Assembly (NCBI GenBank): GCA_025677605.1
Contig: GCA_025677605.1_4110.1
From: a phage
Length of the DNA: 64,000 nucleotides
Strand: one strand, 5' to 3'
In this document: positions 1,987-22,361 of the stretch, in pieces
How positions within the stretch are numbered: the stretch's first letter is position 1
Layout of the letters: each line of letters begins with the position of its first letter
Position numbers and translations under genes: made by a program
The notes under the pieces: model-generated
What the model saw: the letters and a program-made list of their open reading frames with translations, nothing else
What the model was told of the DNA's origin: nothing
The model's database searches: none

Positions 1987-2075
1987 AATGTTTTACTCCA
2001 AACTATTGGCGGGAGAACTATTCCCCCGCTCTATGTAAAACATTATACACTATATGATAGTACTGTCAAATAGTT

Positions 2076-2333
2076 TTATGAGATATCCTCGATATAGTCG
2101 GCCCATTTCATTTTTTCAGTACTGTCAAGTGCAATCGGATTGTTAGGATCAAACCATTCACCATTACCGCAATACATCCCCACGGCAACGGTTTTATATC
2201 CATCCTGGGCCGTATTCCATGCAAGGCCACGATAGATACGGCCTTTAACTGGTTGCAGTACTGGTAACGTTTTATGGTCTTCTACGTAGGCCATAGCTTG
2301 AGGATTTACCCGATATTGTGTGAATTGTTCCAT
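2076..2333 (-). CDS. hypothetical protein (85 aa)
   Basis: track ORF 2076..2384 trimmed to ATG at 2331-2333 (MEQFTQY); upstream codons lie in UTR hairpin. Confidence 0.55.
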   Translation of the reverse strand: MEQFTQYRVNPQAMAYVEDHKTLPVLQPVKGRIYRGLAWNTAQDGYKTVAVGMYCGNGEWFDPNNPIALDSTEKMKWADYIEDIS

Positions 2334-2415
2334 GATGTTTCCCCTTTTAATATTGGGGGAGGATATCTCCCCTATGCAAAACATTATACACTATCAGTTA
2401 GTACTGTCAATACTA

Positions 2416-2682
2416 TCAATTAAATTTAGGATGTATTTCAATGTAGTCACAATAAGGAAAATATTCAATATAACGCGTAGTGATTGGATGTAACGGATCG
2501 GACCATACACCGTCACCCTCATAGCGTGCTATTGGGCCTTTTAAGTACTTTTGTTGTTTCCTTGACCAGTATATGGATTGATAGACTACACCAACGGCAG
2601 GAACAACGAGCGGGAGCATAGAGTGATCTAATACAACGGATTGATAATTTTTATTATAGCGATATGTTGTTTTCTTTTTCAT
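2416..2682 (-). CDS. hypothetical protein (88 aa)
   Basis: track ORF; promoter + hairpin at 2690-2740. Confidence 0.55.
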   Translation of the reverse strand: MKKKTTYRYNKNYQSVVLDHSMLPLVVPAVGVVYQSIYWSRKQQKYLKGPIARYEGDGVWSDPLHPITTRYIEYFPYCDYIEIHPKFN

Positions 2683-2734
2683 TGTTAACCTATTATAGAA
2701 ATTATTAAGGGGATATTATCATCCCCTTTTATTG

Positions 2735-2959
2735 TTATACTAGATTATTTAATCCTCTTATGGTTGATGCTTTTTCTTCTTTCTCCCATTGGCGGTAATA
2801 CTTCCATGCTTCGTGATAGGTGGCGATCAGTTTATCTTTCTCTTCCTGGGGGCTATTCAGGAATGTATCCCGATAATCAGTACTATAGATTACATCGAAT
2901 GGTTTTTTCTCAAAGGCCAGGTCTGCAACTACTGATTCAAGTACTTCGTATGTGGTCAT
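2735..2959 (-). CDS. hypothetical protein (74 aa)
   Basis: track ORF; AAAGGTG RBS. Confidence 0.6.
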   Translation of the reverse strand: MTTYEVLESVVADLAFEKKPFDVIYSTDYRDTFLNSPQEEKDKLIATYHEAWKYYRQWEKEEKASTIRGLNNLV

Positions 2960-3026
2960 GATATTACACCTTTTAGTGGGGGAGGATATCTCCCCCTATG
3001 CAAAACATTATACTTTGTTTTACTTA

Positions 3027-3290
3027 CTATGCAAGTACTTTTTTCATATAAAGGTTATATTCTACACCGCCGTAACCTTCTACGATGATATGTTTTGCGT
3101 TATCACGTTTGCACATAGTGAAACCGTTGTTGATGTGTTCTGCATTTTCCAGGGATACATCACCGATAGCGGCACATACAGCACTTATAACAGTATTCCG
3201 CAAAGTACTGGTATCGTTAGCGGTCATAGTAGTTTGCAGTACTACGTTGTCGTATACGTGTGCATTGATAGTGATTTCGATAGTGTTCAT
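3027..3290 (-). CDS. hypothetical protein (87 aa)
   Basis: track ORF; AGGAGAT RBS. Confidence 0.6.
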   Translation of the reverse strand: MNTIEITINAHVYDNVVLQTTMTANDTSTLRNTVISAVCAAIGDVSLENAEHINNGFTMCKRDNAKHIIVEGYGGVEYNLYMKKVLA

Positions 3291-3376
3291 GGTGTATCTC
3301 CTGGACTTGAGGGGAAACCATTTCCCCTCTCGATATAAAACATTATACGTTAATCTAACTACAATGCAAGTACTTT

Positions 3377-3568
3377 TTAAATTTTATTTCCGATATAGTC
3401 CGGCCTATTCTTTTCAGTCATACGCTTTGCTAATGTTTGTATATGGCTTATCGCGTTTAAGGTGTCTTCCTCCAGGGATGAATCAACATAATCAGGATCA
3501 TTCTTAACCTTGCAATGATTATGATAGCGTAGTACTGCAAGTACTTTTTTAACTTCTTCAACTGTCAT
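3377..3568 (-). CDS. hypothetical protein (63 aa)
   Basis: track ORF; start overlaps stop of 3565..3837 by 4 nt (translational coupling). Confidence 0.55.
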   Translation of the reverse strand: MTVEEVKKVLAVLRYHNHCKVKNDPDYVDSSLEEDTLNAISHIQTLAKRMTEKNRPDYIGNKI

Positions 3569-3837
3569 AATAAGTATTCCACTTCGTTAGCTTTCAGGTT
3601 AGTATCAATCATTAGTGGATTTTTGTAGTCCACAAAACGTTTAGTTTTCTCGATAGCGAAGCCCATATAATCCATCTTGCTTACAGTGCATTCATTCTTA
3701 AAAACTTCTTTCGCTGCATTGATGGCTGATTCCATTGATAACCGACCATCTAAGTTAATATTTCCAAATGATCCACCAGCAGAAGTAGGATTACCGTTCA
3801 TATCTTTAATGATCATAGTAGCGGAGTAGCTAGACAT
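3565..3837 (-). CDS. hypothetical protein (90 aa)
   Basis: track ORF; promoter 3888-3920 and hairpin 3860-3878 upstream. Confidence 0.6.
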   Translation of the reverse strand: MSSYSATMIIKDMNGNPTSAGGSFGNINLDGRLSMESAINAAKEVFKNECTVSKMDYMGFAIEKTKRFVDYKNPLMIDTNLKANEVEYLL

Positions 3838-3859
3838 AATTTTGTTTCCTTTTATTGGT

Positions 3860-3878
3860 GGGGAGAACTATTCTCCCC
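3860..3878 (-). promoter_or_regulatory. 5' UTR stem-loop GGGGAGAAC-tat-TCTCCCC (example of more than 30 copies)
   Basis: inverted repeat lying between the -10 element and the RBS. Confidence 0.6.
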
Positions 3879-3887
3879 TTGATGTAA

Positions 3888-3920
3888 ACTATTATACAGT
3901 ACTGATATACTTTGTCAAGT
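3888..3920 (-). promoter_or_regulatory. sigma70-type early promoter (TTGACA, 16 bp, TATAAT; T5/T4-early-like)
   Basis: rc of 3913-3918 is TTGACA and of 3891-3896 is TATAAT. Confidence 0.65.
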
Positions 3921-3924
3921 ACTT

Positions 3925-4329
3925 TTATTCGCCCATATAGATTAGATTATCATCGCCCACATAGGGATCGCAAACGTTGATTTCTTCGCAGTACTTAGTG
4001 AATACATCGTCATAGTGACCGATATCACGATCCCAAAAGCCAGTACCGTGACCTTCGCGAGTAAGAAAGAGATCATGACCTGCATGATTATAAGTATAAT
4101 CAGGATTATGGTGTTTTTGTACTGCTTCCATTTCATTACTAAACTTTTCAAGGAAACGAGAACATGCAATCACCGCCGCTTGATGGGCTTGCTCTGATAA
4201 TTCGTAATCTTCCAGGTAGTCGCCGTTCTCATTGTGTACAGTACTGAATTGCATAGCTTCAATGTAACCAGCGACCATAGCAGCATGATTTTTATCGTTG
4301 GCGATGTTCCGGGCTTGATTAGTAGTCAT
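3925..4329 (-). CDS. hypothetical protein (134 aa)
   Basis: track ORF; promoter 4378-4410 and hairpin 4349-4367 upstream. Confidence 0.6.
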   Translation of the reverse strand: MTTNQARNIANDKNHAAMVAGYIEAMQFSTVHNENGDYLEDYELSEQAHQAAVIACSRFLEKFSNEMEAVQKHHNPDYTYNHAGHDLFLTREGHGTGFWDRDIGHYDDVFTKYCEEINVCDPYVGDDNLIYMGE

Positions 4330-4377
4330 GATTTTATTCCTTTGTGCTGGGGAGAACTATTCTCCCCTTGATGAAAA

Positions 4378-4410
4378 CTATTATACAGTACTAAGATACT
4401 TTGTCAATAC
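4378..4410 (-). promoter_or_regulatory. sigma70-type early promoter
   Basis: rc TTGACA at 4402-4407, 16 bp spacer, TATAAT at 4380-4385. Confidence 0.65.
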
Positions 4411-4632
4411 TTAATTACGTTTAAAATGATATGTGCCTTTATCATCCTGTACGCCCCATACTGATTTACCATCAACACCAGTGAAGCCGGATTGTAATTC
4501 AATATGGAAACCATTATTATCAACTACAAAAACTTTTTTATTTTCATCCCGATAACATTGATATTCTGAATCAACATTAAAGGCCGCATCATTCAGAAGA
4601 TTGGAAGCGTAAATGCAAGTCATTGTAGTCAT
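4411..4632 (-). CDS. hypothetical protein (73 aa)
   Basis: track ORF 4411..4707 trimmed to ATG at 4630-4632 (MTTMTCIY) after AAGGA. Confidence 0.55.
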   Translation of the reverse strand: MTTMTCIYASNLLNDAAFNVDSEYQCYRDENKKVFVVDNNGFHIELQSGFTGVDGKSVWGVQDDKGTYHFKRN

Positions 4633-4854
4633 GATTTTATTCCTTATTACCAGGGAGAACCGTTCCCCCCTCTCGATATAAAACATTATACTTGATTCTA
4701 AGTACAATGCAAGTACTTTTTAAAAATAGTTTTCAGTACTGACAATACTTATATTATAGATACACTTATGCACCCTATGGGTCAGTGAGTTATCTCTCAA
4801 TGACTATATAATAGCAAAGGGACTGACTGGAGTCAATCCCTTTTTTAATCTTTT

Positions 4855-5439
4855 TTATCGTGTTATAGTTACGGCTTTTACGTCGCGTTGTTTATAGTAC
4901 TGATTCCAGATATTGCGGGTTAAACCGTAATCAAGTACTTTAATCAGGCCATTGCGATCTTGGCCTATGTTCTGCTTTCTGATATCTCTTATCGTTAGTG
5001 TTGATAAGGTATCATCAACGTGTTGTAGTGCATCAGCGAAATGGTGTTGGCGTTCAATAGTGTTACGTTTGACATTGTACTTTAATTCATTGCAAGCGTT
5101 AACGTGCTTTACACTGCCTTTGCTTGCAGTACTCAAACGATCCATAACAATAAACATATTATCAGGATCGCTTAAATGCATATGCACCTTAGCAAAGTAC
5201 TGTTTAAGGTGAGGGCGGTCATAATCTAAAAAATTCCATACCTTACATTCTGTTTCATTTTGTTCTACGCCAGCGTCACAATTAGCGACCTTAATCACTA
5301 ACCGATCATTTAAAGCGAATACGATACGGGATGATCCGGCCCCGATGATCTCCAGACCAGCCAACCGACAAGCTGTAAGGATCTCTTTGTTAGTTTCCAT
5401 TTCTGCCAGTGTACGGATGAATTTAGTATAATTACGCAT
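4855..5439 (-). CDS. putative small protein kinase-like protein (194 aa)
   Basis: Gly-rich loop IIGAGSSRIVF, lysine in VIKVA, catalytic-loop-like IRDIRKQN, DYG in place of DFG; by eye only. Confidence 0.4.
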   Translation of the reverse strand: MRNYTKFIRTLAEMETNKEILTACRLAGLEIIGAGSSRIVFALNDRLVIKVANCDAGVEQNETECKVWNFLDYDRPHLKQYFAKVHMHLSDPDNMFIVMDRLSTASKGSVKHVNACNELKYNVKRNTIERQHHFADALQHVDDTLSTLTIRDIRKQNIGQDRNGLIKVLDYGLTRNIWNQYYKQRDVKAVTITR

Positions 5440-5508
5440 TGCATTTACTCTTTAAGATAGCAGGGAGGTATTCCCTGCCTTGATGTGACTATTATATGTT
5501 AGTACTAA

Positions 5509-5736
5509 TTAGATTGCAACAGTTTTATTTGCAATTACAGAATGAATTGCGGTTTTACCTGATTTAGTACTGAATACATTAGCACGACCATTTTCAATAG
5601 TGATGCGGTATTCACCTTTACTATCAATGAGGTTGATAAATTCAGGAGTACTAAACCGAGTTACTTTAAAAGTCAGTACATTGAGTAGGTCCACCAGCGT
5701 AGTAGTTTCTTTGATGCGTTCTAAGATATTAATCAT
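5509..5736 (-). CDS. hypothetical protein (75 aa)
   Basis: track ORF. Confidence 0.55.
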   Translation of the reverse strand: MINILERIKETTTLVDLLNVLTFKVTRFSTPEFINLIDSKGEYRITIENGRANVFSTKSGKTAIHSVIANKTVAI

Positions 5737-5794
5737 TTTGTTTCTCCCCGTGTTGGTATAGATACATAGTACTAAAACAATTGAGTACTGTCAA

Positions 5795-6013
5795 TTAGAT
5801 AATTGCATATTTCTTTAAAGATAATGCGTCTTGTGTTGGCTGATACTCGATACCGTTACCGTTATCTACTTTAACTAATAAACCTTTGTCAATTAGTTTT
5901 TTAATAGTCCGTTGGCCTTGTTGAAAATTGGTAAAATGTGAATCATTACGAAAGGTATAACCGTGCTTAACTGCTTCATCAATAGTTTTCTTTTCGATTT
6001 TAGATAATTTCAT
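5795..6013 (-). CDS. hypothetical protein (72 aa)
   Basis: track ORF 5795..6070 trimmed to ATG at 6011-6013; upstream 58 bp duplicates the 5737-5795 promoter region. Confidence 0.5.
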   Translation of the reverse strand: MKLSKIEKKTIDEAVKHGYTFRNDSHFTNFQQGQRTIKKLIDKGLLVKVDNGNGIEYQPTQDALSLKKYAII

Positions 6014-6066
6014 TTTGTTTCTCCCGTGTTGGTATAGATACATAGTACTAAAACAATTGAGTACTG

Positions 6067-6321
6067 TCAACGTGATATTAGTTTTATTTTCTTATTATAT
6101 TGTTGGTGTTCATATAGGTTTATCTTTCCTGTATTCTCGATTACTATTCTGTTGTTGGTGTCCACGTCGATTACACGCAGTTTGCCGTTGCTTAACTTCC
6201 TGGGCAATAGATTACCATTAATAAACTCATTAGCAAGCTGTACGGCCTTTGTGATGATTCTCTGTGGTGCTTTATAGTGTACCCGCAAGATATTATCTTT
6301 TGATAGTTGAACCTTAATCAT
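6067..6321 (-). CDS. hypothetical protein (84 aa)
   Basis: track ORF. Confidence 0.55.
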   Translation of the reverse strand: MIKVQLSKDNILRVHYKAPQRIITKAVQLANEFINGNLLPRKLSNGKLRVIDVDTNNRIVIENTGKINLYEHQQYNKKIKLISR

Positions 6322-6383
6322 TTTAGTTTATCCTATAAAAAAGGCGGGAACTGATCCCGCCGTGTTGTTAGTACTGCAAGTTA

Positions 6384-6788
6384 TTAGATAACCTGGCGGC
6401 GTTTACTGTATACGGTAACACGGTTTCCCTTACGGTCATGACGGATCTCTCGTTTGTTGCGAATCAGTTCACTTGGACGCTTCAGGTTTACCAGGTGATC
6501 CGCGTGAGTCCATGCATTCGAATTTACCTGTACTTTAATATCAGAACCAGCGATAAATTCATCTTGAGCGTTAAGTACTGCTGACAGTTCATCAGCTTTC
6601 TTCTGTTCTGCTGCTGTCAGTACTGGCTCCGGTGAATTCACAATATCAGAGATTTCTTTGAACTGTACGGCCCAGCGTTGACCTTTCGGTGCGGTCGTGC
6701 CCATGTCTTTAAATGCTGCTCCTTCCTCGCGTGCAACAATACGGGCAGCTTCACGGGTAGCGTAGAATTTAGTAATCATGGTATACAT
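6384..6788 (-). CDS. hypothetical protein (134 aa), paralog of 18198..18464
   Basis: shares ATRE.AR..G.AFKDMG and C-terminal HDRKGNRVTVYS with 18198..18464. Confidence 0.6.
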   Translation of the reverse strand: MYTMITKFYATREAARIVAREEGAAFKDMGTTAPKGQRWAVQFKEISDIVNSPEPVLTAAEQKKADELSAVLNAQDEFIAGSDIKVQVNSNAWTHADHLVNLKRPSELIRNKREIRHDRKGNRVTVYSKRRQVI

Positions 6789-6874
6789 CCTATTAGTTAA
6801 GTTAGTACTACAAGTTAGAGTCTATTATAAAGTACTATCTGGGCAATGTCAAATAGTACTTTAAATGGATTCTA

Positions 6875-7198
6875 TTACATATCTTTCTTACGTTTTACAT
6901 CGTTGTAGCGAACTGTGATTTCTTTGTTGATCTCTTTCTCAATGTGGTGAATAACTTTTTCTTTCGGGTTGAAACCTATAACCGTTTCTTTAATGATCTC
7001 CAAGCCCGTGTATTCGCCTTGTGTACCGTAACCGTAAGTAAAGGTTTCATGTCCCAGGTCTTCCCAGCGGTCGCCAATCAACGCAGACACGTAGCAAGAG
7101 TGGTAAGTATTGCCGTGTGAATCAGTCCACCGATTAACTTTAATGTCAAAGGATGTTACAATTTTCAGTTCTACTTTCTGGGTAAGGATCATAGCCAT
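6875..7198 (-). CDS. hypothetical protein (107 aa), paralog of 12672..13016
   Basis: shares GNTY, YGYG and C-terminal DVKRKKD with 12672..13016. Confidence 0.6.
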   Translation of the reverse strand: MAMILTQKVELKIVTSFDIKVNRWTDSHGNTYHSCYVSALIGDRWEDLGHETFTYGYGTQGEYTGLEIIKETVIGFNPKEKVIHHIEKEINKEITVRYNDVKRKKDM

Positions 7199-7286
7199 TT
7201 TTATTTCTCTCTTTTAGTTAGGAGGGGAACCGTTTCCCCTCACTCGATGTAAACTATTATACAGTACTAAGATACTTTGTCAATAC

Positions 7287-7469
7287 TTATTTTTTGGAAA
7301 GTTTACGCATTAATTCTACGCTTTCTTGTGAACGTTTTGCTACCTGGCAATCTGCATGGGCAGTAAACATTTTTGTATAGTCTGACGCTTTGCCACCGAA
7401 CCGAGCGGCACGTTCACGGGCACTTGGAACTAATACAATTTCTTTCTTACAGATAGTGCACTTAGCCAT
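7287..7469 (-). CDS. hypothetical small Cys-containing protein (60 aa)
   Basis: track ORF; CxxC near N-terminus; 5' region near-identical to that of 6875..7198. Confidence 0.55.
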   Translation of the reverse strand: MAKCTICKKEIVLVPSARERAARFGGKASDYTKMFTAHADCQVAKRSQESVELMRKLSKK

Positions 7470-7556
7470 TTTTATTTCTCTCTTTTAGTTAGGAGGGGAA
7501 CCATTCCCCTCACTTGATGTAAACTATTATACAGTACTAAGATACTTTGTCAATAC

Positions 7557-7832
7557 TTAAGTATTGTAAATGTCGTGAATAGTGATAAAGTTTTTACGAC
7601 CGTAAACCTGTAAATCAGTATCAATGTAGTGCTTATCAAGTACATCCTCGACGCTTAACGCGGTGTCGTGAATATCTTCATAGAATTGAGGATCTACAAT
7701 CTTGCTTAAGTCATCCGGCGTTAACTTATCGTTAAGCCATTGAACCGCCTGGATATCTGCTTCACGTTTCCAGTCTTGCAGGTTAGTAGTCAGTACTTGC
7801 TCGATTTCGTTAGCTGTCAGTAGAATCCGCAT
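7557..7832 (-). CDS. hypothetical protein (91 aa)
   Basis: track ORF; tandem promoters and conserved leader element upstream. Confidence 0.6.
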   Translation of the reverse strand: MRILLTANEIEQVLTTNLQDWKREADIQAVQWLNDKLTPDDLSKIVDPQFYEDIHDTALSVEDVLDKHYIDTDLQVYGRKNFITIHDIYNT

Positions 7833-7909
7833 TTTATGTTTCCTTATCAGTAGTTGATGTAAGTATTATACTCGTTTACTTTCTATTGTCAAACTATTTT
7901 ATCAGGGGA

Positions 7910-7972
7910 GTTTTTCGTATGTCTTACTCCTGGACTACTTAACGGGGTTACTTGTTTCATTCCCCGTCCTGA
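7910..7972 (-). repeat. conserved leader/small-RNA-like element, copy A
   Basis: near-identical to 17947-18021 and related to 14888-14948; lies between two tandem promoters. Confidence 0.5.
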
Positions 7973-8147
7973 TGTAAAACATTATACTTGATTCTAAGTA
8001 CAATGCAAGTACTTTTTTAAAAATAGTTTTCAGTACTAGCCACCAGCAAACAATAGATACATTTATGCACCCGGTGGGCTAGTTTTTGTCTATGCATATA
8101 TAATAGCAAAGGGACTGACCGGAGTCAATCCCTTTTTTCAATTTATT

Positions 8148-8297
8148 TTATGCCTCGCGAGGGTTGCGATATGTGATAGCGTTCGGGTACATTTGTTTTA
8201 AGTTATTCCACGCCTGGTTAACACTGTATCCGCTGGACCGTATCAGTTGATGCATACCTTTACCCAAAAACGTAACTTCGAAAATGTATTCTTTCAT
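8148..8297 (-). CDS. hypothetical small protein (49 aa)
   Basis: hand-translated; AAGGGGG RBS; ATG overlaps stop of 8294..8467. Confidence 0.4.
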   Translation of the reverse strand: MKEYIFEVTFLGKGMHQLIRSSGYSVNQAWNNLKQMYPNAITYRNPREA

Positions 8298-8467
8298 GCT
8301 ACGGCCCCCTTGTCGGCTTTACCTTTACGCCAGGACGTTACTAATTGTTCGCGTTGCCATAAGTCGAGTGATACAAAAAGTTTTGCGGTATCACCCTTCG
8401 GATATTCGCCAGTAGTACCCATCCGATAAAACAAATCTTTCAGTACTGACAATTCTACATGGATCAT
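8294..8467 (-). CDS. hypothetical small protein (57 aa)
   Basis: hand-translated; AGGAG RBS 8 nt upstream of ATG. Confidence 0.45.
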   Translation of the reverse strand: MIHVELSVLKDLFYRMGTTGEYPKGDTAKLFVSLDLWQREQLVTSWRKGKADKGAVA

Positions 8468-8645
8468 TTTAGATAACTCCTGCTTTGCTTAAGTAAACTA
8501 ATACGGCCTGTACTGCCATAATGATTGCAATTACTACTATGAACGGATTCATGTGCATAACTGTTACCCTTATATGGTGGGGAGAAAACTTCTCCCCTTG
8601 ATGTAATTAATTATACAGTACTGTGATACTTTGTCAAATACTTTT

Positions 8646-8858
8646 TTAATCTTTCAGCCAATGATCTTGGATGAATTTTTCACCGAAGCCTTGCTGCATG
8701 GATTGTAACAGGCGTTCACGGTGTGCGGCGGCAAACTGCTCAGTACTATGCGTTACACCTGGTTGATATCTGGATTCACCATTGGGGGCGATGTATTGTA
8801 CATCCCACGGTTTAGCGTTAGTATCAGACCATTTACGAACGATTAGTTGACCTTGCAT
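8646..8858 (-). CDS. hypothetical protein (70 aa)
   Basis: track ORF 8646..8888 trimmed to ATG at 8856-8858 (MQGQLIV) after GAGGAAAG. Confidence 0.55.
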   Translation of the reverse strand: MQGQLIVRKWSDTNAKPWDVQYIAPNGESRYQPGVTHSTEQFAAAHRERLLQSMQQGFGEKFIQDHWLKD

Positions 8859-8944
8859 TTTTCTTTCCTCAGTACTGGGGAGAATCATTTCTCCCCTTCA
8901 TGTAACTTATTATACAGTACTATAATCTATTGTCTAGTACTTTT

Positions 8945-9133
8945 TTAAAGTTTATGTATCAGTTCTTTATCTAAGCGATAGCGTACATTATTAATAGTAA
9001 CGGCATTGTTTTTAATGCTACGCTGTACAGGTCCACCAGCAATAACAAACGTTGCCTTATTACCCCGAACAATGATAGCACTTCCTGGATTGCCGTATTC
9101 ATCTTGTACTAAAATACTTGATAAGTTTTCCAT
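8945..9133 (-). CDS. hypothetical protein (62 aa)
   Basis: track ORF; second ATG has better RBS spacing. Confidence 0.5.
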   Translation of the reverse strand: MENLSSILVQDEYGNPGSAIIVRGNKATFVIAGGPVQRSIKNNAVTINNVRYRLDKELIHKL

Positions 9134-9293
9134 TTTCATTTCCTCTTAGTAGGGGAAGATGTTTCCCCTTCATGTAAAACATTATACACTATCTTTCAGT
9201 ACTGTCAATTACTTTTTAGTACTTATTTAAACGCTCTCAATCGCATTCTAACGAGCTAATCTATTTTGTAGTACTATCGGATAGGTATATACT

Positions 9294-9323
9294 AAAAAGC
9301 CCACCAGCGTTAACCAGTGGGCT
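9294..9323 (-). terminator. intrinsic terminator (AGCCCACCAG..CTGGTGGGCT + U-run)
   Basis: inverted repeat with A-run on plus strand, directly after the 9320..9463 stop. Confidence 0.55.
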
Positions 9324-9463
9324 ATAATCTTACATCTTGCGGATAATCTTAACAGTATCTTTCACCGATTTACCGTCTTGCTGGCATTGTTCGATCATTG
9401 CGTATTGTTCTGCGGTCAGATCTTCGCCAGTTTTTGCCAGTACTGCTTCGATGAATGAATCCA
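9320..9463 (-). CDS. hypothetical small protein (47 aa)
   Basis: hand-translated; RBS AAGAGAGAAA; terminator follows. Confidence 0.45.
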
Positions 9464-9572
9464 GTGCGATCATTTTGTTTCTCTCTTAGGTTAAGTTAAC
9501 TACTGTTTATAAAACTTATTATACAGTACTATCAAACTATGTCAATATCTTTAATAGTACTGGTAATATATT

Positions 9573-9752
9573 TTAGCGGTAGTCGTCGTATGCTTTATTC
9601 ACCTGGCGAATGTAACTTTCAAAGGCTTCGTCTACCGTTTCATACTCCCGAACATAATCACCATAGGAAACTACATACATCCCTTTTTGATCTTCAAACG
9701 TCATGATGATAGAATCCAGGCCGATGATTTCAGTTTTTGCGATGATAGCCAT
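9573..9752 (-). CDS. hypothetical protein (59 aa)
   Basis: track ORF 9573..9815 trimmed to ATG at 9750-9752 (MAIIAKT); upstream codons read through promoter. Confidence 0.5.
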   Translation of the reverse strand: MAIIAKTEIIGLDSIIMTFEDQKGMYVVSYGDYVREYETVDEAFESYIRQVNKAYDDYR

Positions 9753-9834
9753 TTTTAATTCCTTAGTAGTGTAGTTGATAAAATCTATTATGCCAGTACT
9801 ATCAATCTTTGTCAATAGTACTGTGATAATATTT

Positions 9835-10047
9835 TTAATCGATAATGGTTAATGTAAAGTTATAATCACCGCATCGATATAGCACGTTATTCCCAAATGT
9901 TCCAACCAATCGCACATCACACAAAACGCCAGTTTTTTCTTTTACTTCCTTGATACTTGTAACTCCTGTAATATCTTTATTAAAGTATTCATGGTCTGAA
10001 AATAAAACTTGTTTTGCATTTTTCAATTTCGACCGGATATTAGCCAT
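9835..10047 (-). CDS. hypothetical protein (70 aa)
   Basis: track ORF; promoter + hairpin upstream. Confidence 0.6.
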   Translation of the reverse strand: MANIRSKLKNAKQVLFSDHEYFNKDITGVTSIKEVKEKTGVLCDVRLVGTFGNNVLYRCGDYNFTLTIID

Positions 10048-10142
10048 TTTGTTTTCTCTCTCTGTTAGTGGGGAGAACTATTCTCCCCTTGATGTAAACT
10101 ATTATACAGTACTATAATCTATTGTCAAACTATTTTTTAATA

Positions 10143-10484
10143 TTATTCGAAATCTTCTGGACCGGACTGATAATCATCTTCACCGTATGCACTTTCTAAC
10201 TTCTCGCCAGTGCAATCATCAGTTAGTGAGTCATCCTCATAGTTCACGTCTACGCCCGTGATGTAAAACTGGCTATCGTATGGATCATTGAAATTAATTT
10301 TCTGAATGTTTACAATAACTGTATTGATGCCCAGGACACCGCCATCAGCCGTTACAAAGTACTGATAGTTTTCACATCCACCACTATTGAAACCGTAATT
10401 GATTTCGGCCCGACCATCATTTAAACGCAGTGCCTGAGCGATGAATTCGTTTTCAAAGTTAGATTGAGCAATTGCAATAGTCAT
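10143..10484 (-). CDS. hypothetical acidic protein (113 aa)
   Basis: track ORF; promoter + hairpin upstream. Confidence 0.6.
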   Translation of the reverse strand: MTIAIAQSNFENEFIAQALRLNDGRAEINYGFNSGGCENYQYFVTADGGVLGINTVIVNIQKINFNDPYDSQFYITGVDVNYEDDSLTDDCTGEKLESAYGEDDYQSGPEDFE

Positions 10485-10583
10485 GATTCGTTTCCTTATT
10501 ACCAGGGGAAACGGTTTCCCCTTGCTATGTAAAACATTATACTTGATTCTAAGTACAATGCAAGTACTTTTTGCAAAATACTT

Positions 10584-10766
10584 TTAATCCCTTTGATACT
10601 CACATAACGCCATATCATACGCAATTGACGCTGATTTGAAATCATCGTGTCGCTCAATCTCTTTCATGTCAACATAGATGATCCATAGGTTTACGTCTTC
10701 CTGGCGTATGATAACGGCAGGTTTACCGATGATATGTGATGCCGCTAGTTCGATTGGATTAAACAT
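10584..10766 (-). CDS. hypothetical protein (60 aa)
   Basis: track ORF. Confidence 0.55.
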   Translation of the reverse strand: MFNPIELAASHIIGKPAVIIRQEDVNLWIIYVDMKEIERHDDFKSASIAYDMALCEYQRD

Positions 10767-10885
10767 TGTAGTACTCCTTATTAGATTGATATATTTTATT
10801 TACACTTCCGCACCCTGTGGGCTAGTGAGCTATCTCTCAATGAATATATAATAGCAAAATGGCTGACCGAAGTCAACCACTTTTT

Positions 10886-11023
10886 TCATTTATTTTTAGC
10901 TTTTAGAATCGCCGCTTTTCGCGTCATGCCTTGCTTGATGTACTCCTTTACTTTCGCTTTACGTGCTTTCGCTTTATCTGCTTTCGTTTTAGGAGTACTG
11001 TAAATTAAACCGTTAGGATTCAT
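10886..11023 (-). CDS. hypothetical small basic protein (45 aa)
   Basis: hand-translated; weak RBS. Confidence 0.3.
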   Translation of the reverse strand: MNPNGLIYSTPKTKADKAKARKAKVKEYIKQGMTRKAAILKAKNK

Positions 11024-11109
11024 TTAAATCACCATAAAGAATAGATAGGTTACTAACAATGCCGCGATCAATGCACCGATCACCGCCGAACTGTAATAAG
11101 CCAATGATT

Positions 11110-11262
11110 TCATTTTTTAGCCTGGAAGTAATGTTTAATTTGTGCGGCGGTCAATGCACAATTACGCAGGAAGTTTTCTGTATAACTGCGACGAGTACTG
11201 AAAGAAAATTGACCTTTGCCGTTGCCGATAGTAACATCAAACCGAGCATTATATTGTTTCAT
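11110..11262 (-). CDS. hypothetical small protein (50 aa)
   Basis: hand-translated; AGGAGAA RBS 6 nt upstream. Confidence 0.45.
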   Translation of the reverse strand: MKQYNARFDVTIGNGKGQFSFSTRRSYTENFLRNCALTAAQIKHYFQAKK

Positions 11263-11346
11263 TTTGATTCTCCTAGTATCAGGGGAGAACCATTTCCCCC
11301 CCCTCTATGTAAAACATTATACAGTACTAAAAACTAATTGCAAGTA

Positions 11347-11493
11347 CTATTTTTTAGATTTACGCAAACTTTCTACCATCTCAGGAGTAAGGCCCGGCGG
11401 GTAGGAAACCACTTCATCAACGAAACGTAAAGGGAATACCCCAGCGAAAGGTGAACATGCTTTCTTAGTATTACTCTTTTTTGATGCTTTCAT
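11347..11493 (-). CDS. hypothetical small protein (48 aa)
   Basis: hand-translated; promoter + hairpin at 11500-11580. Confidence 0.4.
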   Translation of the reverse strand: MKASKKSNTKKACSPFAGVFPLRFVDEVVSYPPGLTPEMVESLRKSKK

Positions 11494-11575
11494 TTCATAT
11501 TCCTTAATTAGTGGGAAGTACTATTTCTCCCCTTCATGTAAAACATTATACAGTACTAAAAACTAATTGCAAGTA

Positions 11576-11818
11576 TTATTTTAAACTTTGTGCGACTAAT
11601 TTCGCACGGTCAATCATATACTGCCATTTTTTGATCTCTTCTGGTAGAAAACGATATTCACCAATAACAATAGTGATACACTTTTCAGCCTGGTCAATGT
11701 ATGTAGTGTCAATCTCGACTTGAACGGGTACACGTTCGCCGTAATCAGTGCCAGGGATAATACAATCATTATCATAAGTAACAGTAGTAGCAGTGTCTTT
11801 GATTAAAATTGTTTCCAT
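11576..11818 (-). CDS. hypothetical protein (80 aa)
   Basis: track ORF. Confidence 0.6.
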   Translation of the reverse strand: METILIKDTATTVTYDNDCIIPGTDYGERVPVQVEIDTTYIDQAEKCITIVIGEYRFLPEEIKKWQYMIDRAKLVAQSLK

Positions 11819-11888
11819 TATACTTTCCTCGTTAGGTGTAAGGGGAAAAAGTTTCCCCTCTATGTAAACAATTATACAGTACTGAAAA

Positions 11889-12098
11889 CTAATTGCAAGT
11901 ATTATTTTCTAAAAAATGATTGTATGCTGCATCAACCACTCTTTCGATAACATACGCCAACGGCACGTATCCAACTACATGACTACAATAGAAAGGACTA
12001 CGATTAGAATCATCGTATGCAAATACTTTACCAGGTACGGCATCAATCACATACATATTAACCTTTAAGATGTCGATCTTATCCTGTACAGTAAGCAT
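11889..12098 (-). CDS. hypothetical protein (69 aa)
   Basis: track ORF 11889..12125 begins at a TTG; first ATG at 12096-12098 used. Confidence 0.5.
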   Translation of the reverse strand: MLTVQDKIDILKVNMYVIDAVPGKVFAYDDSNRSPFYCSHVVGYVPLAYVIERVVDAAYNHFLENNTCN

Positions 12099-12099
12099 A

Positions 12100-12270
12100 T
12101 TACGCCGCCTTATCAGTACTAGCAACCGGACGGATACGGGCCATCGCCTGGGCTTGTTCTACGCTGTATTGTTCGTATAGTCTGCATTCTTCCGGTGTAG
12201 GAATAGCATCAATACGTTTCATTGGTTTAATGATGCTTTCAACTTCATTCAGTACTTGATTAACGTTCAT
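12100..12270 (-). CDS. hypothetical small protein (56 aa)
   Basis: hand-translated; GAGGATAA RBS; stop abuts next ATG. Confidence 0.45.
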   Translation of the reverse strand: MNVNQVLNEVESIIKPMKRIDAIPTPEECRLYEQYSVEQAQAMARIRPVASTDKAA

Positions 12271-12321
12271 GGTATTATCCTCAATATTAGCGGCCTAAAT
12301 CAACCGCTAACGATGTTTTGA

Positions 12322-12591
12322 TTAATAGGTGTATGGTTGACGCTCAAACAATGAATAGACGTTATACGCCCCGCTAATGGGCTTCGCTGGCAAATCAATT
12401 TTATATTGTTCACGCTTAAAGATAATAAAACGGCAATTGTTTTTTACATCAAAATTGATTGAACGTTCCAGGAGTTTTCCATCGTGTACAAATACAAGAT
12501 AACCGCTTGGTACTTGTTTTGTAGTACTGGTTGCAACCATAGACCGACGAACATGCGTACCTGCATCGATTAAAGTACTGATATTTTTCAT
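12322..12591 (-). CDS. hypothetical protein (89 aa)
   Basis: track ORF. Confidence 0.55.
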   Translation of the reverse strand: MKNISTLIDAGTHVRRSMVATSTTKQVPSGYLVFVHDGKLLERSINFDVKNNCRFIIFKREQYKIDLPAKPISGAYNVYSLFERQPYTY

Positions 12592-12671
12592 TATACTATC
12601 CTCTTAAGTTAATTTAATTTCTTTCCCCTATGCAGACACTATATCAAAGTATCTGCATAAAGTAAAGCTAA

Positions 12672-13016
12672 TTAAAGATCTTTTTTGCGTTTAACATCAG
12701 TTACCGAACTGTAAACAGTGATATTATTGTCACGGCAAAAACGGGAAAGATAAGAACCGCGTAAAAACTCTTTACCTTCCATATCAATAACCTTGCTAAA
12801 TTCATCCATTGCTACGGTGTCAAAGTGATCCCCGTATCCATATTGGAACGGCACGTTTACTACTTCAATAAAATTACCATCAATTTCTACGTCTACACTT
12901 AAAGAGAAATAAGTGTTACCATATGAAGCCTGGAACCAACGCCGAGCGGCAATATGTACAACTTCAACAGAAGACAGGTTGATATTTTGTGCTGTGATAG
13001 TGTTGATGTTAGCCAT
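12672..13016 (-). CDS. hypothetical protein (114 aa), paralog of 6875..7198
   Basis: track ORF; shared motifs with 6875..7198. Confidence 0.6.
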   Translation of the reverse strand: MANINTITAQNINLSSVEVVHIAARRWFQASYGNTYFSLSVDVEIDGNFIEVVNVPFQYGYGDHFDTVAMDEFSKVIDMEGKEFLRGSYLSRFCRDNNITVYSSVTDVKRKKDL

Positions 13017-13096
13017 TTTTAGTTTCCTCAGTTGTTTTGATAAAATCTATTATGCCAGTACTATCAATCTATGTCAATAGTACTGTGATAATAATT

Positions 13097-13309
13097 TTAC
13101 TTACTTTCTTTCGATGCTTTATGTTGTGCAACTGCCATTACTACATCAGCACGAACAAAGTTTTTAACCGTGTCAGTGTAATAATTGATTGCATCGTCTA
13201 TATCTGCGAACGTCCGATACATACCGCACCAAGATACTTTATAACCTGCTTTCACTTGTTCCAGCTTAACCAGTGATTTGTTTACTTTGATTTTAGTAAT
13301 GATAGCCAT
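13097..13309 (-). CDS. hypothetical protein (70 aa)
   Basis: track ORF; promoter variant TTGACA-17-CATAAT upstream (three copies of this promoter region). Confidence 0.6.
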   Translation of the reverse strand: MAIITKIKVNKSLVKLEQVKAGYKVSWCGMYRTFADIDDAINYYTDTVKNFVRADVVMAVAQHKASKESK

Positions 13310-13391
13310 TTTTTGTTTCCTCTTAGTTGTCTTGATAAAATCTATTATGCCAGTACTATCAAACTATGTCAATAGTACTGTGATAATATTT

Positions 13392-13535
13392 TTACTTACT
13401 TTTTGCTTTCTTTGCTGCTTCCACCTGGTCGGCCCACTCTTTACCCCATACTTGAGCATTATAGTGATACTGACAAAGAGCAACGCCCCGCTTCAAACCA
13501 GTAATAGATTTTTTACCACATTGACAAGTTTTCAT
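13392..13535 (-). CDS. hypothetical small Cys-containing protein (47 aa)
   Basis: hand-translated MKTCQCGKK...; promoter + hairpin upstream. Confidence 0.45.
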   Translation of the reverse strand: MKTCQCGKKSITGLKRGVALCQYHYNAQVWGKEWADQVEAAKKAKSK

Positions 13536-13622
13536 TTTAGTTTCCTCTTAGTGGGGAGAACCATTTTCTCCCCTTGATGTAATGTATTATACTTTATCTG
13601 ATTTACTTTGCAAGTACTTTTT

Positions 13623-13850
13623 TTAATTTAATTCATCCAGGCAAAGGATACGCTCAACGCCCAAATCAGTTAAACTAATAGACGGCACTTGATAGGTTTC
13701 AACGTATTCTACACTCGCCCACTGACCGAACTCATTCACCGCCCAGGTATTCATTGCAAAATGTAATTCCGCACCTTTCTTATTAGTAATTACAGCAACA
13801 GTAGAAGAATTGCCAGTAGTACCAGATACGCGAGTGATTACGATAGCCAT
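13623..13850 (-). CDS. hypothetical protein (75 aa)
   Basis: track ORF. Confidence 0.6.
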   Translation of the reverse strand: MAIVITRVSGTTGNSSTVAVITNKKGAELHFAMNTWAVNEFGQWASVEYVETYQVPSISLTDLGVERILCLDELN

Positions 13851-13920
13851 TGTTTTGATTCCTATTCAGTAGTTGATGTATGTATTATCGCAGTACTTAA
13901 AACTATTGTCAAACTATTTT

Positions 13921-14073
13921 TTAAAGTTTATCAATGATTGATGCCGTTTCATTGATAGTCTTGCCGTGTTTTGCACACGCGATAACTGCTTTAAATTCCT
14001 TTGATGACCAATCTTTTTTACTGCATACTGACATTACTTGTAAAGTGAAACAATCCAGTTCATAAGTATTCAT
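13921..14073 (-). CDS. hypothetical small protein (50 aa)
   Basis: hand-translated; TGAGGATAT RBS. Confidence 0.4.
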   Translation of the reverse strand: MNTYELDCFTLQVMSVCSKKDWSSKEFKAVIACAKHGKTINETASIIDKL

Positions 14074-14177
14074 CTTTATATCCTCAGTTAGTTAAGGTGT
14101 CTCGCCTTGATGAAATTAATTATACGCTAATCTCTTAATCGTGCAAGTACTTTTTATTAGTTTTTGCAAAATACTTT

Positions 14178-14269
14178 AAACGCCCGCAATCGCATTCTAA
14201 CGACCTTAACGCCACCAGCTAGGGCGATGCATCAGATAATCAGTTTAATGCGTTAGAATCGATTCTAGG
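14178..14269. repeat. conserved motif AAACGCCCGCAATCGCATTCTAACG with inverted partner CGTTAGAATCGATTCTAGG
   Basis: motif also at 9229-9253 and 19431-19456, each just distal to a terminator. Confidence 0.45.
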
Positions 14270-14300
14270 CGGTGCTGGGGGCATGGTAAACGATAAACAC

Positions 14301-14327
14301 AAAAAAGCCCACTGTTTAAGGTGGGCT
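14301..14327 (-). terminator. intrinsic terminator (AGCCCAC..GTGGGCT + U-run)
   Basis: inverted repeat with A6 on plus strand, after the 14349 stop; same design at 15031-15058. Confidence 0.55.
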
Positions 14328-14348
14328 AGTGATTCAGTACTTTAATTG

Positions 14349-14831
14349 TTATGCTTCAACTTTGCGATGAGCTTCGATCCATTCCTCGCGAGTCAATCCG
14401 CTTTCTTTGATAGCATCCAGTACTACGGCAATGCAGTTACCGCGTACTGGTACAGTGTATTCCTCGCCATTATCCAGAACTACCGGCACGCGTTCCTGAA
14501 TCCATTTTTTAGCTTTTACTTCTGGCTTGTCTTCCCCGTATTTCGCTGCCAGGGCTTTACGTGCCATTTCGGTTACTACTTCCAGATCAAGCCCAGCGAC
14601 GGCGGCGTTAATATCTTCAATCGTTTTCTGCAATTCAGCTTCGCGTGCTGCCTTCTCAGCTTCAAGTGCCGCCGCTTTATTAGCTTGTAGTTCTTTCGCT
14701 TCGCTGTACGCAATGTTAAAATTGTTGCGTACTGCTTTCATGGTATCGCTATCCAGTTCAGCCAGGATCTCAGCCGCTACGTTAGTTTCATTTGCTACCA
14801 GTGCTTTGATGAATGATTTTACATTAGCCAT
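14349..14831 (-). CDS. hypothetical Ala/Glu-rich protein (160 aa)
   Basis: track ORF 14349..14846 trimmed to ATG at 14829-14831 after TGAGGAAT. Confidence 0.6.
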   Translation of the reverse strand: MANVKSFIKALVANETNVAAEILAELDSDTMKAVRNNFNIAYSEAKELQANKAAALEAEKAAREAELQKTIEDINAAVAGLDLEVVTEMARKALAAKYGEDKPEVKAKKWIQERVPVVLDNGEEYTVPVRGNCIAVVLDAIKESGLTREEWIEAHRKVEA

Positions 14832-14887
14832 TATATAATTCCTCAATTAAAGTTTAGTTTACGTTTATTAGTGTATCAAAGTTTTCT

Positions 14888-14948
14888 TGACGTGTCCAGT
14901 TTTTCGTTCGACTTACTGGCGGTCTACTTAGTGTTCCCCGTCTTGATG
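14888..14948 (-). repeat. conserved leader element, degenerate copy C
   Basis: related to 7910-7972 and 17947-18021. Confidence 0.4.
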
Positions 14949-15030
14949 TAATACATTCTACGCTTTTCTTCGGTAATGTCAACTACTTTTTTAAAACTAT
15001 TTTCAAAGTATCTCAGTACTACACCACTAC

Positions 15031-15058
15031 AAAAAAAGCCCACTGTTTAAGGTGGGCT
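15031..15058 (-). terminator. intrinsic terminator (AGCCCAC..GTGGGCT + U-run)
   Basis: same inverted repeat as 14301-14327, downstream of 15076..15375. Confidence 0.55.
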
Positions 15059-15075
15059 ATTGATTCAGTACTAGA

Positions 15076-15375
15076 TTATAAACAGTTAATTACTCCTGTG
15101 TGCGTTACTTTCTCAGTATCCATAACCGTGACCGAACCGCGTTTTTTCTTCGCATCATAATAAATTGTTGTGCTACCTTTCGCATCTTCTTCATGGAACG
15201 GGCCATTTTTAAATGCTTCTGGCTGTAATTCCAGATCCTTTAAAACAATCTCGCCAGTACTTTCATCGGTCATTGCTACGGTGCACTGAATGAATTTATC
15301 ACCAGGTACATCTAACGACGCATTAACAGCGAAAGAGGAAACAGATAAAGCCAGGGCGATGATTGCTACTTTCAT
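15076..15375 (-). CDS. putative secreted protein (99 aa)
   Basis: N-terminal signal-peptide-like MKVAIIALALSVSSFAVNA. Confidence 0.6.
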   Translation of the reverse strand: MKVAIIALALSVSSFAVNASLDVPGDKFIQCTVAMTDESTGEIVLKDLELQPEAFKNGPFHEEDAKGSTTIYYDAKKKRGSVTVMDTEKVTHTGVINCL

Positions 15376-15460
15376 TTGATTATCCTTAGTTACCAGGGGA
15401 ACCGTTCCCCCCCTTGCTATGTAAAATATTATACAGTACTAAAAACTAATTGCAAGTACT

Positions 15461-15697
15461 TTATGATTTTTTATAAAACATTTCGGCAGTGATATTTTTA
15501 CCCGTTGGTTGTACTTTATCCAGGATTTTTTGATGCCCGGACCGTCCAAATGAATATGATCCGTAAACCGTAAACCAGTAGTTACCCTCAGTGTTTACAT
15601 GTACAGCACAATAGGGAACGCCCCGCGATTCATCACTAGTAAAGTGTGCTACCGTTCCCGTTACATTCGAAGACGTTGATTTGATTTGTTCGACCAT
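15461..15697 (-). CDS. hypothetical protein (78 aa)
   Basis: track ORF. Confidence 0.6.
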   Translation of the reverse strand: MVEQIKSTSSNVTGTVAHFTSDESRGVPYCAVHVNTEGNYWFTVYGSYSFGRSGHQKILDKVQPTGKNITAEMFYKKS

Positions 15698-15805
15698 TTT
15701 CTTATTCCTTAGTTACCAGGGGAACCGCTCCCCCTATGCAAAACATTATACGCGTTTAAAAACTATTAGCAAGTATTTTAATAAAAAGTATTTGAAAAAT
15801 AGTTC

Positions 15806-15934
15806 TTGACAACTGCATCCAATACTGGCATAATTACTACATAAAGACAAAACAGTCTCTAACCCACCGGGTGCATAGATCCGTCTATTAAATGATTCAG
15901 TACTGAAAAAAGAAAGGGGATCAATTGATCCCCT
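15806..15934 (+). ncRNA. candidate small plus-strand transcript (promoter TTGACA-17-CATAAT, conserved CTAACCCACCGGGTGCATAG element, hairpin at 15915-15934)
   Basis: plus-strand promoter in an otherwise minus-strand block; no ORF; ends at a hairpin + T-rich stretch. Confidence 0.3.
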
Positions 15935-15939
15935 CGTTG

Positions 15940-16161
15940 TTATTTTGTAAGGTATAAACAGAAGTCACCTTTATTTGCTACGCCGCCAGTGTAACGCGAT
16001 GAATAGTTAGAAACGTCCTGGACTTCTGCTATTACCAGTGTATCATCATTCAATTCGTCGCAGAAGCAAACGGCTGGATCTTTTACGCCGATATTGTCGG
16101 CATGTTCCCGCATAGATTTAACCAGTGCTTCAAGTTGGGAAAGGGTAGTAATGTTAGCCAT
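15940..16161 (-). CDS. hypothetical protein (73 aa)
   Basis: track ORF 15940..16191 trimmed to ATG at 16159-16161 (MANITTL). Confidence 0.55.
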   Translation of the reverse strand: MANITTLSQLEALVKSMREHADNIGVKDPAVCFCDELNDDTLVIAEVQDVSNYSSRYTGGVANKGDFCLYLTK

Positions 16162-16246
16162 TTTATTTTCCTCATTACCAGGGAGAACCATTTCTCCCCT
16201 CTATGTAAACCATTATACAGTACTAAAAACTAATTGCAAGTACTTT

Positions 16247-16450
16247 TTAATTTAATTGCTTAAAAACATACTCAAAGACACGACGCACATCATTGATCAT
16301 CGCCTGGCGGTTAGCAGGTAACGCATCAGGATCGCCACTATCCCAGGCATTGATAAAACTCCCCAAATCATGATAGATTTTATTCTGTAAGCCGATTAAC
16401 TGCAATTCTTTTTCTTCAAGCTCTTTGATACGTTCAATTAAATCACTCAT
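16247..16450 (-). CDS. hypothetical protein (67 aa)
   Basis: track ORF 16247..16486 trimmed to ATG at 16448-16450 (MSDLIERI). Confidence 0.55.
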   Translation of the reverse strand: MSDLIERIKELEEKELQLIGLQNKIYHDLGSFINAWDSGDPDALPANRQAMINDVRRVFEYVFKQLN

Positions 16451-16467
16451 TATATAATCCTTAGTAC

Positions 16468-16752: not shown

Positions 16753-16837
16753 TAGATAATCCTCAGTAAAGGCGGGAACTATTCCCCGCCTCGATATAAA
16801 GTATTATACGTTAATCTAACTACAATGCAAGTACTTT

Positions 16838-22360: not shown

Positions 22361-22361
22361 A

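Follow-up and report, generated by a model that had tools for sequence, protein, structure and literature searches.

Can a phage protein of 194 amino acids (aa) be a functional protein kinase, and which substrate would it act on? The question is raised by a gene at positions 4855-5439 of a 64,000-nucleotide stretch of phage DNA (hereafter the window; GenBank assembly GCA_025677605.1, contig GCA_025677605.1_4110.1), which an initial annotation made from the letters alone had described as a minimal protein-kinase-like early gene. The analysis presented here shows that the product belongs to the protein-kinase-like superfamily with respect to fold and catalytic residues. Its role can be proposed with moderate confidence: it would be a stand-alone and catalytically competent phosphotransferase with a minimal core, most likely an early kinase that acts on host proteins, comparable to the T7 kinase gp0.7 (T7K).

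Gene, predicted fold, and catalytic residues

The window belongs to an Asteriusvirus jumbo coliphage of the PBECO4/121Q/G17/phAPEC6/Sharanji group, with 89-93% nucleotide identity by megablast and tblastn. In a program-made list of open reading frames (ORFs), an ATG-to-stop ORF for a 194-aa product occupies exactly 4855..5439, as had been proposed, and its location on the minus strand is added here. Its ATG is separated from the preceding in-frame stop by only four codons. Homologues were found by tblastn in 54 phage records; orthologues with 91-96% identity occur in approximately 35 phages of the Asteriusvirus group, and orthologues with 36-39% identity in RaK2-like Klebsiella and Salmonella jumbo phages, an Erwinia phage, and a Xanthomonas phage. 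Compared with the G17 orthologue, the gene shows 54 nucleotide and 12 amino-acid differences and a ratio of nonsynonymous to synonymous substitution rates (dN/dS) of 0.08. Because of this ratio and the homologues across phage records and clusters, the ORF is, on comparative grounds, a real gene under strong purifying selection.

At the sequence level, the best relatives of the protein are PKC theta, MKK4/7, BTK, STK4, and PKA. A phmmer search against the PDB returned mainly protein kinases, with PKC theta as the top match (E = 0.012), where TIRDIRKQNIG..IKVLDYG is aligned opposite VYRDLKLDNIL..IKIADFG. Profile searches, which the initial annotation had suggested as a check, gave in-register kinase matches to Pfam Pkinase (E = 0.001), MKK4 (E = 1.4e-4 with a profile of 11 homologues and E = 5.6e-5 with 52 homologues), and PKA (E = 6.3e-6 and 85% probability, hhalign with a 117-sequence alignment). 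In the last comparison G33/G35 are paired with G50/G52, D152 with D166, N157 with N171, and D170 with D184. The Pfam matches are sub-threshold: Pkinase (PF00069) and PK_Tyr_Ser-Thr (PF07714, also E = 0.001) are both matched with 18.9 bits, against gathering scores of 31.7 and 23.1, respectively, and the kinase match spans profile positions 25-152 of 263 only. Membership in Pfam Pkinase was rejected on score and on architecture, as the activation segment, the APE motif, and helices F-I are missing.

The protein also matches phrog_4301 (PHROGs v4; E = 2.2e-41, residues 3-187), as do all 52 relatives that were tested. Among these 52 members, Pkinase was matched by six (E ≤ 0.01), ABC1 by two, and PK_Tyr_Ser-Thr by one, and the APH, choline-kinase, RIO, and Kdo families of Pfam by none. 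An NCBIfam scan of the 194-aa protein gave nothing useful, and matches to PD-T4-6 in a defence-system library (E = 4e-4) were set aside as weak, generic kinase similarity that is not meaningful.

Structure prediction, the second suggested check, likewise gave a kinase-like fold. With the 117-sequence alignment, AlphaFold delivered a confident model with a predicted local distance difference test (pLDDT) score of 95.7 and a predicted template modelling score of 0.91. The predicted fold is bilobal: a hinge connects a five-stranded N-lobe, which includes helix C, to a C-lobe with the catalytic loop. After two N-terminal helices come strands 30-34, 38-42, and 47-52, a long helix 55-73 (helix C), a short helix 76-81, and strand 96-100. 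The C-lobe contains helices 109-120 and 130-145 (D and E) and the DYG motif flanked by the short strands 158-160 and 166-168, after which a single helix (175-182) leads to the chain end, 12 residues beyond this helix and 22 residues beyond DYG. The protein is thus unusually small, as had been claimed, and the model has no activation segment, APE motif, P+1 loop, or helices F-I. Helices F-I scaffold the C-lobe in all canonical kinases.

In the structural-match table for the model, APH(2'')-Id is listed with 10.3, SAICAR synthetase with 9.1, PknB with 8.5, MEK1 with 8.3, Rio2 with 7.6, and the minimal RNA kinases TkArkI (216 aa) and Ark1 (173 aa) with 7.2 and 7.1, respectively. A Foldseek search against the PDB gave kinase matches with template modelling (TM) scores of 0.40-0.44, which are only around 0.4 because half of the C-lobe is missing. 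Matches in BFVD include many small phage proteins of 140-250 aa, and T7-type "protein kinase" entries reach TM scores of 0.52-0.58 (E of approximately 5e-6 to 5e-5), above any kinase in the PDB.

A sub-threshold single-sequence Pfam score and a first AlphaFold run with 11 close homologues, whose model was unusable (pLDDT 48), would fit a coincidental motif resemblance or an ORF that is not a functional gene. This explanation is refuted by the dN/dS of 0.08, by 249 proteins retrieved at E ≤ 1e-10, by the confident model, and by the in-register kinase matches, and its probability is negligible. The outcome is the opposite of what the initial annotation had named as speaking against a kinase, namely no kinase fold and motifs that fail to align with catalytic residues.

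All four motifs quoted in that annotation are present in the canonical order: IGAGSSRIVF at residues 32-41, VIKVA with K50 at 48-52, IRDIRKQNIG with D152 and N157 at 150-159, and DYG at 170-172 in the position of DFG (accgtaatc in the DNA as given, the reverse complement of GAT TAC GGT). The Gly-rich loop, D152/N157, and D170 align to canonical positions. R38 stands where GxGxxG has its third glycine. K50 is assigned as the predicted beta-3 lysine from its place in model strand 47-52 and its invariance; the assignment does not rest on the HMMER and hhalign alignments, which are out of step near strand 3. E64 presumably pairs with K50 as a salt bridge, Q60 and N61 lie one helical turn ahead of E64, and R38, Q60, and N61 probably line the phosphate site.

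Conservation was read from 193 modules aligned to the family hidden Markov model (HMM), copies in tandem proteins included. K50 is found in all of them and E64 in 192 (99.5%), followed by D170 (99.5%) and D152 (97%). Similarly high values are seen for R38, Q60, G159, and G172 (98% each), G57 (97%), and N61 (96%), as well as for G35 (96%), S36 (90%), and G33 (88%). Position 157 is N in 34%, H in 33%, S in 18%, and Q in 11% of the modules, one of these four being present in 95%. Y182 is found in 76% of the modules, and mostly aromatic residues occupy positions 178 and 181. The resulting family signature is GxGSSRxV[FY] ... V[IL]KxAxNxxGxxQNxxE ... D-x(4,5)-[NHSQ]-x-G ... [LI]D[YF]G ... YY. The conserved K50, E64, D152, N157, and D170 together with the purifying selection indicate that the protein is probably an active ATP-dependent phosphotransferase.

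Alternatively, no phosphoryl group might be transferred to a substrate, and the protein would act as a pseudokinase regulator or decoy, as an ATPase, or by AMPylation-type chemistry, perhaps requiring dimerization to complete the C-lobe. The missing scaffold helices F-I, the extra invariants R38, Q60, and N61 near the nucleotide-phosphate site, and the tandem arrangement (2-4 modules) of approximately a quarter of the retrieved proteins, a hint of paired working, are in line with such a role. Pseudokinases usually lose at least one of the Lys, Glu, catalytic Asp, and DFG Asp. Here, however, these four residues are kept at 97-100%, tandem copies included, and T7K is a very active kinase with a similarly truncated core, so that a protein without phosphotransfer is considered improbable.

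It was also observed that the catalytic loop varies at 4969-4989 (residues 151-157), where three positions differ among orthologues that are more than 90% identical: the window and G17 have IRDIRKQN, two other orthologues (P0001 and P0004) IIDISKTN, and a third (P0006) AQDCRKNN. Residues at these positions face the substrate in canonical kinases, and residues 151-157 may be a hotspot of specificity change.

Candidate substrates and comparison with known kinases

The favoured explanation is that of a protein-kinase-like fold reduced to its core, with two N-terminal helices, a five-stranded N-lobe, and helix C, and with little left of the C-lobe, namely helices D and E, the catalytic loop, the two strands around DYG, and a last helix. 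The GAGSSR loop, K50-E64, and the hinge would bind ATP, with D152 serving as the base and N157 and D170 as Mg ligands. Soon after the DNA has entered, host RNA polymerase would start transcription of the gene at an early-class promoter within the terminal repeat, and the product would phosphorylate Ser, Thr, or Tyr residues of host or phage proteins during host take-over or counter-defence. Without P+1 loop, APE motif, and helices F-I there would be no peptide-binding groove, and low substrate selectivity is therefore expected. Protein is the most probable substrate because the only significant sequence relatives are protein kinases and because T7K has a similar truncated architecture.

T7K is an active, hyperpromiscuous anti-defence protein kinase, and A0A7L7SMK1, one of the structural matches in BFVD, has been named as a T7K homologue (PMC13645617). 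Like T7K, the protein studied here is encoded by a phage at an early genome end, its N-lobe motif is similar (LGxG...VIKV), and its kinase core stops shortly past the DFG equivalent. In T7K, only a short stretch separates DPV (213-215) from a charged linker, and the T7K-like gp144 of phage Sharanji (224 aa) ends 20 residues past DPL. On the other hand, the protein has DYG instead of DPV, carries GxGSSR and QNxxE signatures that are not found in T7K, and has no C-terminal shut-off/DNA-binding domain. Membership in the T7K family (PHROG 2828) was rejected: phrog_2828 was not matched at E ≤ 1, the hhalign probability was 2%, and the phrog_4301 family HMM scored 0.4 bits on T7K. The resemblance to T7K is architectural and structural only.

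Sharanji carries both kinase genes, the phrog_4301 orthologue and gp144, at different loci. Its gp144 (18183-18857 of locus L014) matches T7K by BLASTP with E = 3.5e-8. A tblastn search with gp144 gave no match in the 64-kb window, although the collinear region should be covered, and the window's phage may lack a gp144-like kinase or carry it elsewhere.

Canonical Ser/Thr/Tyr kinases (MKK4/7, PKC theta, PknB) share with the protein the bilobal fold, the beta-3 Lys and helix-C Glu, and the Gly-rich loop, D-x4-N loop, and DFG-type motif in register. They differ in their size of approximately 260 aa compared with 194 aa and in having an activation segment, APE motif, and helices F-I. Furthermore, the third loop glycine is Arg in the 194-aa protein, HRD has lost its His, and the Arg that precedes D152 is variable among the orthologues.

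The same active fold might instead serve a non-protein substrate, such as RNA (tRNA or broken ends) or a small molecule, be it a nucleotide, a signalling molecule, or some other compound. Reduced C-lobes without activation loop are also typical of APH(2''), RIO, and ArkI (AQ578 family), and the wider phrog_4301 family mostly has G-D in the catalytic loop, comparable to HGD. ArkI, an archaeal RNA 2'-OH kinase of 173-216 aa that lacks subdomains VIII and X and keeps IX and XI, which are missing from the protein studied here, acts on RNA, and its gene shares an operon with that of a tRNA nucleotidyltransferase (PMC9095486). A 2,130-aa phage protein (P0110, 8001-14393 of locus L006) combines an N-terminal phrog_4301 module with a 2H phosphoesterase and a CCA/poly(A) nucleotidyltransferase. 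The missing peptide-binding elements, the basic character of the protein (isoelectric point 9.0), and the invariant R38 and Q60/N61, which are atypical of protein kinases, point in the same direction. Against this, the sequence-level matches are all protein kinases, with none of the 52 members matching APH, choline-kinase, RIO, or Kdo families, and the HGD/Brenner motif is absent, I-R-D standing in its place. The fusion to RNA enzymes was seen in one of the 160 retrieved proteins, no recurrent RNA-repair partner was present in five other contexts, and the isoelectric point is not uniformly basic in the family (median 8.5, range 4.5-9.9). We regard a non-protein substrate as possible and rather unlikely. 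An APH-type enzyme in particular was rejected: the catalytic loop IRDIRKQN has no Brenner (HxDxxxxN) His, the C-terminal helical substrate subdomain of APH is missing, and no APH Pfam match was found, so that the similarity is structural only.

Several observations weigh against a host-directed protein kinase. All peptide-substrate-binding elements of canonical kinases are missing, and the Pfam Pkinase score of 18.9 lies under the gathering score of 31.7. A sequence-level link to the T7K family is not demonstrable by PHROG scan, hhalign, or HMM. The catalytic-loop Asn at position 157 varies across the family, one family module is fused to RNA-end-processing domains, and the proteins of the terminal-repeat region do not show the depletion of Ser, Thr, and Tyr reported for T7-like phages. 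Finally, canonical protein kinases have no equivalents of the family invariants R38, Q60, and N61, and this could mean a different chemistry or a different substrate.

Terminal-repeat location and predicted expression signals

The G17 orthologue is located at 4,249-4,833 of a linear 370,817-bp record, approximately 4.2-4.8 kb from the physical left end. The kinase gene lies inside a direct terminal repeat of approximately 20 kb and is present in two copies in records that hold both repeats; one GenBank record annotates "Direct Terminal Repeats" over the orthologue. For Sharanji, a terminal repeat of 20,668 bp has been described (PMC11895373). The first 22 kb or so of the window consists of small minus-strand genes, and 20 perfect TTGACA-N16/17-TATAAT sites were found in the window, all on the minus strand, compared with 0.05 expected. 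These sigma-70 sites fall at 2042-21146 and 46139-62842, with 14 of the 20 between 2 and 21 kb. An AGTACT(G) spacer motif directly ahead of the -10 box is common to many of these 20 sites, which look like a phage-specific class of strong early promoters. A predicted promoter with this spacer motif sits 52 nt upstream of the kinase ATG (Table 1).

The phAPEC6 orthologue, gp500c, is absent among 62 virion proteins, and the protein would therefore be made after infection and not injected. The terminal-repeat location, the promoter class, and the absence from the virion argue for early transcription by host RNA polymerase. The "early gene" of the initial annotation thus gains indirect support, the timing being deduced from these features; no transcriptome of the Asteriusvirus phage group was found. 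Ser/Thr/Tyr depletion of the terminal-repeat proteins was also considered as an indicator and discarded as uninformative, since the content of 17.4% compared with 17.5% in other small-gene regions gives no signal.

Table 1. Features of the kinase-like gene and its surroundings (coordinates refer to the window)
Feature	Position	Strand	Basis
Coding sequence of the minimal protein-kinase-like protein, stop codon included	4855..5439	minus	ORF list; phrog_4301 E = 2e-41; dN/dS 0.08; AlphaFold pLDDT 95.7
Predicted sigma-70-like promoter, TTGCAA-17-TATAAT with AGTACT spacer motif	5491..5519	minus	Promoter scan, 10/12 matches
8-bp GC-rich hairpin, presumed 5' untranslated region	5461..5480	minus	RNA fold -14 kcal/mol, z = -2.5
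Putative ribosome-binding site AAAGAG, after the 5' hairpin	5448-5453	minus	Sequence reading
Gly-rich ATP phosphate-binding loop G33-A-G35-S36-S37-R38	5326..5343	minus	Aligned to PKA G50-T-G52-S-F-G55; between model strands 30-34 and 38-42
K50, predicted beta-3 ATP-anchoring lysine (VIK)	5290..5292	minus	193/193 modules; middle of model strand 47-52
Helix-C segment Q60-N61-E-T-E64	5248..5262	minus	Conservation; model helix 55-73
Catalytic loop D152-I-R-K-Q-N157 (base Asp, metal-binding Asn)	4969..4986	minus	Aligned to the RDLKxxN loop of PKC theta, MKK4, PKA
D170-Y-G172, DFG-equivalent Mg-binding motif	4924..4932	minus	Aligned to DFG of PKC, MKK4, BTK, PKA
C-terminal helix R175-Y182 (RNIWNQYY), in place of the activation segment	4894..4917	minus	Model helix 175-182; module boundaries of tandem proteins
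Predicted hairpin terminator, starting 12 nt past the stop codon	4806..4843	minus	Terminator scan; terminator annotated at the same place in the G17 record

The terminator downstream of the gene is one of three copies (1733-1770, 4806-4843, and 8098-8135, minus strand) of the 38-nt cassette AAAGGGATTGACTCCGGTCAGTCCCTTTGCTATTATAT, and a diverged copy lies at approximately 10856-10883. A 12-bp hairpin terminator with a -35-like TTGACT in its stem makes up the cassette together with a TATTAT that follows, so that a terminator may be combined with a promoter.

Further along the window, at approximately 22000-25600 and near the expected inner end of the repeat of about 20 kb, the sign of the GC skew is inverted and genes pass from the minus to the plus strand. 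Next come ten large plus-strand ORFs at 25.6-38.4 kb that are unusually rich in Ser, Thr, and Tyr (26.7%). A scan of ten larger ORFs of the window gave no match to a kinase PHROG. Two annotated ORFs stand amid unannotated small genes on the minus strand: a 375-aa ORF of the HNH/endonuclease family (42505-43632; phrog_681 and phrog_559) and a 516-aa virion structural protein (47126-48676; phrog_20398).

A ParE-like toxin domain (PF24732, E = 6e-11) is encoded by an 84-aa ORF at 6067-6321 (minus strand), two genes upstream of the kinase gene. A ParE_like gene (5745-5996 of locus L004) is also found directly upstream of a 51%-identical homologue (P0007) on a 101-kb metagenomic contig. ParE-like genes, near two family loci, are the exception in genomic contexts that otherwise revealed no recurrent operon partner, the neighbours being an SNF2 helicase, an exonuclease, a dUTPase, a NUDIX protein, and a metallophosphatase.

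The phrog_4301 family and its significance

PHROGs annotates phrog_4301 with "unknown function", and there is no Pfam family of its own. A profile search of 1.84 billion representatives retrieved 2,085 proteins at E ≤ 1e-3, including 249 at E ≤ 1e-10, and the best 150 all have E < 5e-12. Most family proteins have a length of 180-260 aa, and the family spans at least 150 clusters at 50% identity. All genomic contexts that were examined are phage-like; searches with close-subfamily patterns found no relative in the GTDB representative genomes and only phage 121Q in IMG/VR. The ORF at 4855..5439 is the sole match of the family HMM in the window, with no second copy.

Approximately 40 of the 160 retrieved proteins consist of 2-4 complete modules in tandem. 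Each module ends just past "LDYGL..V...YY", the next one starts right after the C-terminal helix, and the catalytic set is kept in every listed full-strength module. The mini-kinase module is autonomous. Examples of such arrays are P0021, P0022, P0027, P0028, and P0033 on metagenomic phage contigs (e.g., L010). In P0073, P0110, and P0112, the second module is weak and lacks R38 and Q60. Two intact modules were found inside a 3,248-aa protein (P0121, 2318-12064 of locus L011) that contains a phage minor-tail (tape-measure) domain, and modules inside the tape-measure-like protein of another phage fit an action inside the host at entry.

Taken as a whole, phrog_4301 may tentatively be viewed as a large phage-specific family of "half-kinases", with modules of approximately 190 aa that end after DFG and bear their own signature. 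In contrast to canonical kinases, they might work as obligate dimers or tandem pairs, as very promiscuous anti-defence protein kinases that are independent of the T7K lineage, or as RNA/nucleotide kinases, deployed as stand-alone early proteins, as arrays, or as tape-measure cargo that enters with the DNA.

The kinase label itself is not new. Most GenBank orthologues are called hypothetical, several are named "protein kinase domain-containing protein", "serine/threonine-protein kinase PknA", or "putative protein kinase", and the Sharanji orthologue (WNN14351.1) was described as "another protein kinase" with unknown function (PMC11895373). The kinase-fold assignment of phrog_4301, its signature residues, and its tandem and fused architectures are new from this analysis. 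Phage-encoded enzymes with a kinase fold are of a known kind; what is new here is the signature, a truncation of extreme extent, and the occurrence of modules in tandem, inside a tape-measure-like protein, and fused to RNA enzymes.

T7K disarms many bacterial defence systems at once (PMC13645617). The gene described here would represent a second phage kinase-like family, which is smaller than T7K and unrelated to it in sequence, with a similarly stripped-down architecture. For now, the gain is a confident annotation at the fold level and a defined set of residues to mutate. If the protein acts on RNA or small molecules, it would stand for new phage enzymology. If it proves to be active as a protein kinase, it would rank with the smallest known, would offer a minimal scaffold for studying what a kinase core needs, and would be a candidate effector of counter-defence or host take-over in jumbo phages used for therapy.

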